DNA of 64,000 nt from Escherichia coli O157:H7 (GTDB lineage Bacteria > Pseudomonadota > Gammaproteobacteria > Enterobacterales > Enterobacteriaceae): the NCBI RefSeq assembly GCF_013167455.1, contig NZ_CP038328.1; one strand, written 5' to 3'. Of the stretch, positions 18,109-20,106 are shown piece by piece. The translations under genes and the position numbers were made by a program. Each line of letters begins with the position of its first letter. Within the stretch, counting starts at the first letter, position 1. The notes beneath the pieces were generated by a model. The model did no database searches and was not told where the DNA came from. It was given only the letters and a program-made list of their open reading frames with translations.

Positions 18109-18129
18109 ATGTAACGGATTGCGTTACAT
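18109..18129. promoter_or_regulatory. inverted repeat ATGTAACG-N5-CGTTACAT upstream of ytfQ (candidate operator)
   Basis: 8-bp perfect arms ~70-90 bp upstream of ytfQ start in the ytfQ-ppa divergent intergenic region. Confidence 0.35.
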
Positions 18130-18878: not shown

Positions 18879-18957
18879 GTTCTTCTGGCGTAATAACCCT
18901 GAACGCCGGGCTTCGGTTAGTAAGGGTTTTTTTATGCCCGCGATAAATAAACACACC

Positions 18958-19308
18958 TTATTCCACCACCGCCTGCAAGCGTAATAACGCCTCTTCCACC
19001 ACCTCATCCGCAGCCAGACCAATACGCTTTGCCAGCCGGGCGCGTAGATCCATCATCCGCACCTGATTAACCAGCACCACGCCGTGCACATCGCCTTCTT
19101 CGCAATGTAAAGGAACGCTAAATCCGGCATAACGGGCAAAATTTCCACCCTGCGTAATGGGGGCCACCAGCGTCATTCCCAGTTGATTAAAGGCTTGAAC
19201 GGAGAGCACAAGCGCAGGTCGACCAGCACCTTGCTGTTCATGGCCGCTTGCTGGATCAAAGCCAACCAGCACAATGTCTCCCCGTTCAAATTCACTTTTC
19301 TTTACCAT
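18958..19308 (-). CDS. chpB: type II toxin ChpB (MazF/PemK-family endoribonuclease), 116 aa
   Basis: Full ORF; PemK/MazF-like sequence; overlaps upstream antitoxin gene by a few nt. Confidence 0.9.
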   Translation of the reverse strand: MVKKSEFERGDIVLVGFDPASGHEQQGAGRPALVLSVQAFNQLGMTLVAPITQGGNFARYAGFSVPLHCEEGDVHGVVLVNQVRMMDLRARLAKRIGLAADEVVEEALLRLQAVVE

Positions 19309-19553
19309 ATTTCGTCACCCGCAGGGGTGGATTTACCCCAGACATCCTGCTCGCTAAGTTCCGCGGCGTTCATGTCACACTGTGCCAGCAGTTCATCAAG
19401 CGAGTAGCGCCTGGAGATGGGTGTCAGAATCAGTTGGTTGTTGCTCACCTGCACTTCCACGCTCTGCCCCGGCTGTAAGTTAAGTTCTTTCATTACGATA
19501 TTGGGAATGACCATACCTGCACTGTTCCCCCATCTTTTTATGGTAATACGCAT
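19302..19553 (-). CDS. chpS: antitoxin ChpS (MazE/AbrB-like), 83 aa
   Basis: ORF-track 19302..19559 trimmed to the ATG giving MRITIKRWGNSAGMVIPN; strong RBS AAGGAGG upstream. Confidence 0.9.
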   Translation of the reverse strand: MRITIKRWGNSAGMVIPNIVMKELNLQPGQSVEVQVSNNQLILTPISRRYSLDELLAQCDMNAAELSEQDVWGKSTPAGDEIW

Positions 19554-19566
19554 CTGCACCTCCTTA

Positions 19567-19585
19567 AGTTATACAAAGTATAACT
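19567..19585. promoter_or_regulatory. palindrome AGTTATAC-AAA-GTATAACT immediately upstream of chpS RBS (candidate chpSB operator / -10)
   Basis: Perfect 8-bp arms with 3-bp spacer; contains TATACT -10-like hexamer on the reverse strand. Confidence 0.4.
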
Positions 19586-19721
19586 CACGGTGCTACAGGA
19601 AACGTTTTACCCCTGCGCATTTGTGAATGCCAGCAGAGTTTTTTATGCGTTAATAGATATGGAAAGCGGCTCGGAGAGAAAAGCAAAAGGTGAGGGAATT
19701 ACAAAACAGAATGCGAGTCGT

Positions 19722-19757
19722 CTCGCAAAAAACAACGCCACCCGAAGGTGGCGTATG
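19722..19757 (-). terminator. rho-independent terminator after ytfP
   Basis: Reverse strand hairpin ACGCCACC-TTCG-GGTGGCGT followed by TTGTTTTTTG. Confidence 0.6.
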
Positions 19758-19764
19758 CATAGGG

Positions 19765-20106
19765 TTACTTATCCCTGTCTAACCAGTCGCCGCTTTCAAT
19801 TAGCTTTAATCCATCGACGGGTCGTTGATAAACGTACATCCATGCACTCCCGTACGGCGTCTGAATCAACTGGCGCGCGTATTCACCGCCCCTGGTGCGC
19901 AAGGCATCAAGTTCGGCCAGCGTGGCGTTGTCAATACGATAAACTTCACCGTGTACCGTTCCGTTCCCCGGAACTGCGCCTGGATAGTGGCCCAGGCTAT
20001 ACAACTGGTAGTTATCGATACTGAAATCGCCCAGTAACTGGGCATTGGTCATCCAGTGACTGTTGCCTTGTTTGTGGCGTAAACTGCCGTAGACAAATAT
20101 TCGCAT
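19765..20106 (-). CDS. ytfP: gamma-glutamylcyclotransferase-family protein, 113 aa
   Basis: Full ORF MRIFVYGSLRHKQGNSH... (AIG2/GGCT-like YGSL motif); 3 nt downstream of tamB stop. Confidence 0.9.
   Translation of the reverse strand: MRIFVYGSLRHKQGNSHWMTNAQLLGDFSIDNYQLYSLGHYPGAVPGNGTVHGEVYRIDNATLAELDALRTRGGEYARQLIQTPYGSAWMYVYQRPVDGLKLIESGDWLDRDK

Follow-up and report, generated by a model that had tools for sequence, protein, structure and literature searches.

The closest described relative of the chpSB toxin-antitoxin (TA) operon of Escherichia coli is parD of plasmids R1/R100 (kis-kid/pemIK), in which an AbrB/MazE-fold antitoxin is followed, as in chpSB, by a PemK/MazF-type toxin. Region I of R1 parD is an 18-bp perfect dyad bound by Kis dimers, as determined by hydroxyl-radical footprinting, EMSA, and native mass spectrometry; Kid-Kis complexes bind this region more tightly than Kis, and its left half overlaps the parD -10 element (PMC1865072). 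In mazEF, the homologous antitoxin binds an alternating palindrome, the "cab" operator, through its N-terminal swapped-hairpin domain, and in an NMR-based model of MazE on its operator, the K, R, W, and N of the KRWGNS motif contact DNA (PMC4333400).

For chpSB, the literature searched yielded no experiment on the binding of ChpS to DNA; older chpSB papers may already depict the palindrome considered here. No mapped operator or transcription start of chpSB was found in the searchable literature, and autoregulation of the operon has apparently been assumed by analogy in database annotation. Here, we analyze a 64,000-nt stretch of the E. coli O157:H7 genome (NZ_CP038328.1; hereafter, the window) that contains chpSB and a palindrome immediately upstream of it. 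Comparison with related loci leads us to propose, with considerable confidence, that this palindrome is the operator by which the chpSB operon represses itself.

Results

A perfect palindrome adjoins the chpS Shine-Dalgarno sequence

A preliminary description of the window had reported a perfect palindrome that abuts the chpS ribosome-binding site and contains a -10-like TATACT, and all three features can be read directly from the DNA (Table 1). The arms are perfect over 8 bp each and enclose a 3-nt spacer, a single base separates the palindrome from the chpS Shine-Dalgarno (SD) sequence, and TATACT is found at 19582-19577 on the minus strand. On that strand, which encodes chpS, the region reads CGTG-AGTTATAC-TTT-GTATAACT-T-AAGGAGG-TGCAG-ATG, and the centers of the two half-sites are spaced 10 bp apart. 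The two genes that follow are those named chpS and chpB in E. coli genome annotations. We take the chpS SD sequence to complement the 3' end of 16S rRNA at 10/10 positions; a perfect complement of this length is uncommonly strong for a chromosomal gene.

Table 1. Features of the chpSB region, in window coordinates
Feature	Position	Strand	Basis or remark
Palindrome AGTTATAC-AAA-GTATAACT, 8+3+8	19567..19585	plus-strand reading	proposed ChpS / ChpS-ChpB operator
Core GTTATAC-TTT-GTATAAC, 17 bp	19568..19584	-	kept between genera
TATACT, candidate -10 (left arm plus first spacer base)	19577..19582	-	invariant, parD-like position
Shine-Dalgarno UAAGGAGGUG of chpS	19557..19566	-	read from sequence
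Extended imperfect inverted repeat, 21-nt arms, 76% complementary	19554..19598	-	repeat search
chpS, AbrB/MazE-type antitoxin, KRWGNS in N-terminal DNA-binding domain	19302..19553	-	Pfam PF04014 MazE_antitoxin, E 2e-12
chpB, PemK/MazF-type endoribonuclease toxin, presumed co-repressor	18958..19308	-	Pfam PF02452 PemK_toxin, E 8e-26
Blocks GCTGG (19634-19630) and GTAAAAC (19610-19604)	19604..19634	-	conserved in spacer alignment A7
Two terminator-like hairpins after ytfP	19754-19735 and 19727-19712	-	terminator scan
ytfP	19765..20106	-	

Taken alone, the palindrome is only moderately unusual, that is, out of the ordinary but not exceptional. Dinucleotide shuffling of the 211-bp ytfP-chpS spacer produced a perfect inverted repeat with arms of at least 8 and a spacer of at most 6 in 1.5% of cases; for the 50 bp nearest chpS, the figure was 0.5%. 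The whole window holds 17 such repeats (approximately 11 distinct) versus 8.05 +/- 2.8 in its shuffles, and the others are for the most part GC-rich terminator stems. A chance AT-rich inverted repeat, with function limited to the -10-like hexamer, would be in keeping with an expectation of about eight perfect 8+8 repeats per 64 kb. The significance of the palindrome derives from its conservation.

A separate perfect inverted repeat, ATGTAACG-GATTG-CGTTACAT, lies at 18109-18129 in the divergent ytfQ/ppa spacer, some 70 bp before ytfQ, and is a possible binding site of a regulator.

The palindrome core persists while its flanks diverge

From 19540 to 19620, the window is identical to the K-12 MG1655 sequence, which places the palindrome at NC_000913.3 4448415-4448433, and over 19280-19780 it matches an O157:H7 chromosome at 100% identity. 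The letters of the palindrome do not vary between K-12, O157, UPEC, and three further species of Escherichia. Proteins sharing over 90% identity with ChpS are confined to Escherichia, where the entire 130 bp upstream of chpS is conserved. Comparison at the species level therefore does not single out the palindrome, and conservation of the whole upstream region is compatible with a chance repeat.

Using a 64%-identical metagenomic homolog (L008) as the search seed, we recovered chpS-like genes in Enterobacter, Scandinavium, Lelliottia, and Trabulsiella. The gene order tamB-ytfP-chpS-chpB-ppa is shared by the three genera compared (Enterobacter, Scandinavium, and Trabulsiella). An alignment of the spacers of Escherichia, Enterobacter, Scandinavium, Trabulsiella, and L008 (A7) shows that GTTATAC-T(T/C)T-GT(A/C)TAAC is the conserved block closest to the gene, apart from the SD sequence and the start codon. 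TATACT is unchanged in 9/9 sequences of the ChpS lineage. The flanks of the core are unalignable across the orthologs and the 64% homolog, and the longest identical run among 430 aligned bases of E. coli and this non-syntenic homolog is GTTATACTTTGTATAACTT, 19 nt in length. Retention of the core in four genera and the 64% homolog despite such diverged flanks argues against a repeat that arose by chance.

The substitutions that do occur are informative as to what is being conserved. The right arm carries an A-to-C change in Scandinavium and Trabulsiella without a compensating change, and in the divergent E. coli E69 it carries an uncompensated G-to-A change, accompanied by an outer T-to-C change. 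The half-site letters, beyond mere pairing, are conserved down to approximately 40% protein identity. Uncompensated changes in the right arm together with sequence-level conservation of the half-sites fit recognition by a protein better than an RNA stem.

The motif recurs upstream of distant antitoxin genes

We extended the comparison to loci selected by protein similarity alone, at 35-45% identity to ChpS. The pattern TATAY-N3-4-RTATA, with at most one mismatch and 27-38 nt before the start codon, is present at 11/15 of these loci and in 6/10 independent lineages. Approximately 72 kb of background sequence contained no exact and two one-mismatch matches (0.002 per 80 bp), which puts the probability of this recurrence far below 1e-6; within the 64-kb window the pattern is found once. 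Exact dyads precede the antitoxin genes of L013, L015/L016, and L011, as well as PemI (L001) and a PemI-like prophage gene (L143). L162 has a one-mismatch dyad, AGTTATAC-AAA-GTAAAACT, and L141 a different dyad of equal geometry, GTAGTAAC-TTT-GTTGCTAC. No dyad was found upstream of the antitoxin genes of L017, L160, and L161. ChpS-like loci have a 5-nt gap between the hexamers, and PemI-like loci a 6-nt gap. This recurrence before distant homologs, along with the match to the footprinted parD operator described below, renders a chance repeat extremely improbable.

In L013, a metagenomic homolog with 40% identity, TTATACAATGTATAA occurs as two identical copies 40 bp apart (527-581) upstream of the antitoxin gene. 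The pair recalls the layout of parD regions I and II; E. coli chpS has no such pair.

The distribution of the motif also bears on whether another DNA-binding protein, such as MazE or a nucleoid-associated or global regulator of AT-rich dyads, might own the site. The mazEF operator does hold related TATATAC/GTATCTAC elements (PMC4333400), and the literature includes a report of cross-talk between proteins of chpB and parD. Against this, the motif accompanies ChpS/PemI-family genes across unrelated contexts and organisms, and a motif that travels with the antitoxin gene is unlikely to serve a host-specific regulator. Half-site details, moreover, vary with the antitoxin subfamily, as the 5-nt and 6-nt gaps illustrate. 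We therefore regard the site of another protein as very improbable.

Searches seeded with the motif rather than the protein were less revealing. Of 120 viral-contig loci with GTTATAC-N3-GTATAAC, a ChpS-like open reading frame (ORF) is nearby in one only, and this one is E. coli chpS itself, so that the viral set is uninformative; in metagenomes, a family ORF follows 5/60 sites matching a more specific pattern. Five phage contigs (L072, L045, L111, L121, and L088) carry GTTATAC-N3-GTATAAC 4-11 times each with no ChpS-like gene nearby, and these repeats are probably an unrelated regulatory motif. A profile search with a smaller alignment returned mainly proteins whose similarity is limited to the C-terminal toxin-binding motif. 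Among the viral contigs, a set of small, prophage-like ones (L145-L159) has this ChpS/PemI C-terminal motif, YTLEELLAQCDPNA, joined to a non-AbrB N-terminal domain (MKRTEQWSRFDA...DGDPALL...), which looks like antitoxin domain shuffling.

Resemblance to the parD and mazEF operators

The closest parallel is with parD, whose antitoxin PemI/Kis is 37% identical to ChpS. Region I reads GTTATATTTAAATATAAC, then TTTTATGGAGG..ATG, with TTTTATGGAGGTGAAGAATG as the longer reading (sequence in L001 and PMC1865072); the chpS counterpart reads GTTATACTTTGTATAAC, then TTAAGGAGG..ATG, with TTAAGGAGGTGCAGATG as the longer reading. The GTTATA/TATAAC half-sites are common to both, as is the placement just upstream of the antitoxin SD sequence, and in both a -10 or -10-like hexamer (TATATT in parD and TATACT in chpS) falls in the left half of the dyad. 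The two elements differ in the gap between hexamers, which is 5 nt in the 17-bp chpS element (GTTATAC-TTT-GTATAAC) and 6 nt in the 18-bp parD element (GTTATAT-TTAA-ATATAAC). They also differ in number: parD has an imperfect region II 33 bp upstream, whereas chpS has a single site, and a search of the ytfP-chpS spacer for a second match to GTTATACNNNGTATAAC at up to three mismatches found none. Operator binding has been demonstrated for parD and, by analogy, would be expected for chpS.

The mazEF operator resembles the chpS palindrome in being AT-rich, in its TATAC/GTAT elements, and in overlapping a promoter, and the toxin enhances binding to it; it differs in comprising three adjacent sites over 47 bp with two promoters, compared with the one 17-19-bp dyad of chpS (PMC4333400). 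ChpS aligns with MazE end to end, and its best PDB matches are the MazE structures 1mvf/1ub4. Residues K6, R7, W8, and N10 of ChpS correspond to K7, R8, W9, and N11 of MazE. The base-contacting R16 of MazE is replaced by V15 in ChpS, consistent with an operator sequence unlike that of MazE.

The dyad coincides with predicted promoter elements

TATACT matches the sigma-70 -10 consensus TATAAT at 5/6 positions, including A2 and T6. By eye, the hexamers at upstream spacings of 16-18 nt share 0-1/6 positions with TTGACA, and of an extended -10 TGn only the G is present (aGt in chpS versus TGt in parD). A strict sigma-70 consensus scan of 19300-19900 called no promoter before E. coli chpS. The same scan also missed the experimentally defined promoter of R1 parD, so this negative result weighs little. 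Since a -35 element is absent in E. coli and Enterobacter, the chpS promoter is probably weak there. From the position of TATACT, we infer a transcription start near 19570 (K-12 ~4448430).

Among relatives, the scan yielded promoter calls at four loci. In L008, the call is ATGACA-16-TATACT, with the -10 being the TATACT inside the left arm; by eye in alignment A7, Scandinavium is arranged in the same way. L162 gives TTGACA-17-TAAAGT, the last three -10 bases of which begin the dyad; L015 gives TTGACA-17-TATGTT, with the dyad beginning approximately 2 nt after the -10; and L011 gives TTGACA-17-TACTAT, with the -10 at the dyad center. In these four relatives, the dyad thus always lies on or abuts the predicted -10 element, where a repressor would act.

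Farther upstream, the GCTGG and GTAAAAC blocks are conserved in Escherichia, Enterobacter, Scandinavium, and L008, and they are kept in E. coli genomes without chpSB as well. They can be read as CTGGCA-18-TAAAAC, with an 18-nt spacer, and are absent from the promoter calls of the consensus scan. We speculate that they might form a very weak upstream promoter with a start at the base of the long hairpin discussed below.

Transcription entering from ytfP appears to be restricted. The tandem hairpins after ytfP span 4448246-4448288 in K-12 (window 19712-19754), and the 3' end of ytfP mapped by Term-seq falls at K-12 4448270 (window 19730), with an intrinsic score of 14.2 and a significant Rho score of 2.36; upon bicyclomycin treatment, coverage over chpSB, downstream of this end, rises from 114 to 191 (PMC7815308 supplementary file 3). 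The hairpins imply that upstream transcription is largely kept from chpS. The palindrome itself was rejected as an intrinsic terminator: the terminator scan calls only the ytfP hairpins, and the palindrome stem has 2/8 G-C pairs and no T-run after it.

Approximately 1650 of 4749 E. coli genome matches cover the ytfP side only, without chpSB. In one such genome, L006 (CP039298), positions ~768-868 are the counterpart of window 18951-19603 and hold a frameshifted ChpB remnant. The remnant matches ChpB residues 15-48 (tblastn E 8e-6, 50% identity) and includes a stop codon. It indicates that E. coli genomes without chpSB lost the operon by decay, as opposed to never having had it.

A predicted leader hairpin would pair with the SD sequence

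The palindrome could alternatively act mainly as RNA, forming the apical stem of an approximately 45-nt chpS leader hairpin whose lower stem pairs a pyrimidine-rich stretch lying upstream with the very strong SD sequence. Such a hairpin would limit ChpS translation or stabilize the 5' end, and it could coexist with operator function. Like SD-sequestering leader hairpins elsewhere, the predicted sense-strand structure pairs the SD sequence, and in several ChpS lineages it extends as far as the start codon. The E. coli sense strand from 19598 to 19554 folds at -19.8 kcal/mol (z -3.35) with three SD bases paired; the 64% homolog, with unrelated flanks, reaches -20.8 kcal/mol (z -5.1) and pairs the whole SD sequence, five bases in all.

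Restricting shuffling to the 19-nt left flank of the hairpin gave low P values when G-U pairs were allowed, in E. coli (0.016-0.022), Scandinavium (0.017-0.02), Trabulsiella (0.017-0.018), L008 (0.01), L212 (0.006), and L203 (0.009). In the five lineages tested in this way, significance is lost without G-U pairs (P 0.05-0.85), as it is on the antisense strand (P 0.07-0.77), a pattern that suggests structure in the sense RNA and not an extended dyad in the DNA. The exception is L203, whose signal is independent of G-U pairs (P 0.009 without them) and so speaks against the RNA reading. L203 and L212 are also distinguished by one U-A to C-G double change within the SD-pairing stem, which counts in favor of the RNA reading.

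Several further observations weigh against the hairpin. It requires a start upstream of ~19598, where the consensus scan calls none, and if TATACT is the -10 element, the left arm of the hairpin would not be transcribed. Covariation is weak, with an RNAalifold term of +0.17 and a score that is equalled by 78/500 shuffles and is not above controls, and the variation is mostly C-G to U-G opposite an invariant purine-rich SD sequence. The extension is missing in Enterobacter (P ~0.3), L231 (P 0.17), and the distant homologs including parD, so that the structure is absent from the wider family, and several Escherichia variants break pairs without compensation. An Rfam scan of the spacer returned no match, and the half-site sequence is kept well beyond the needs of a stem. 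We consider it improbable that the palindrome acts mainly as RNA; a real hairpin layered on the operator is somewhat easier to accept, although still unlikely.

Discussion

The element upstream of chpS is very probably an autoregulatory operator, as would be expected for a classic type II TA operon, and is a clear relative of parD region I. The proposal of a chpSB autoregulatory operator had been made from the window alone; comparison now lends it support in the match to parD region I, the conservation of the core, the recurrence of the motif before distant homologs, and the overlap with promoters in relatives.

In the model we favor, AbrB/MazE-fold ChpS dimers would recognize the two GTTATA(C) half-sites, spaced by one turn of the helix. 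On the precedent of Kid with Kis and of MazF with MazE, ChpB is presumed to be a co-repressor, which would tighten binding by bridging ChpS dimers. The candidate -10 hexamer TATACT consists of the left half-site and the first spacer base, and transcription is predicted to start within the right half-site; with both inside the palindrome, a bound complex would exclude RNA polymerase. In our best model, the promoter repressed in this way is a weak one that in E. coli has no -35 element. Under stress, degradation of ChpS would vacate the operator and raise chpSB transcription. Fusions to the chpSB promoter are induced under antitoxin-depleting stresses (PMC5296605), which fits derepression upon loss of ChpS.

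The operator and the predicted hairpin might also be combined, in a dual role that we regard as doubtful. Here, the palindrome would serve as a DNA operator over a weak autoregulated promoter, whose transcripts would start inside it, while longer transcripts, arising from CTGGCA-18-TAAAAC or from ytfP read-through, would form the 45-nt hairpin and lock the perfect SD sequence. Translation would then proceed only from transcripts of the autoregulated promoter. A further possibility under this scheme is that the ACY-specific toxin ChpB could cleave an ACU in the loop and open the lock, which would amount to antitoxin synthesis triggered by the toxin.

The autoregulatory operator, as the preferred reading, leaves the current view of type II systems unaltered, and the hairpin is the only potentially surprising part; if true, an SD-locking hairpin would add a post-transcriptional layer to chpSB control. 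For chpSB, a classic TA locus of E. coli K-12, the putative operator is now narrowed to 17 bp and is open to direct testing. The family motif, TATAY-N3-4-RTATA located 27-38 nt ahead of the start codon, may be used to annotate candidate operators of ChpS/PemI type in genomes and metagenomes.
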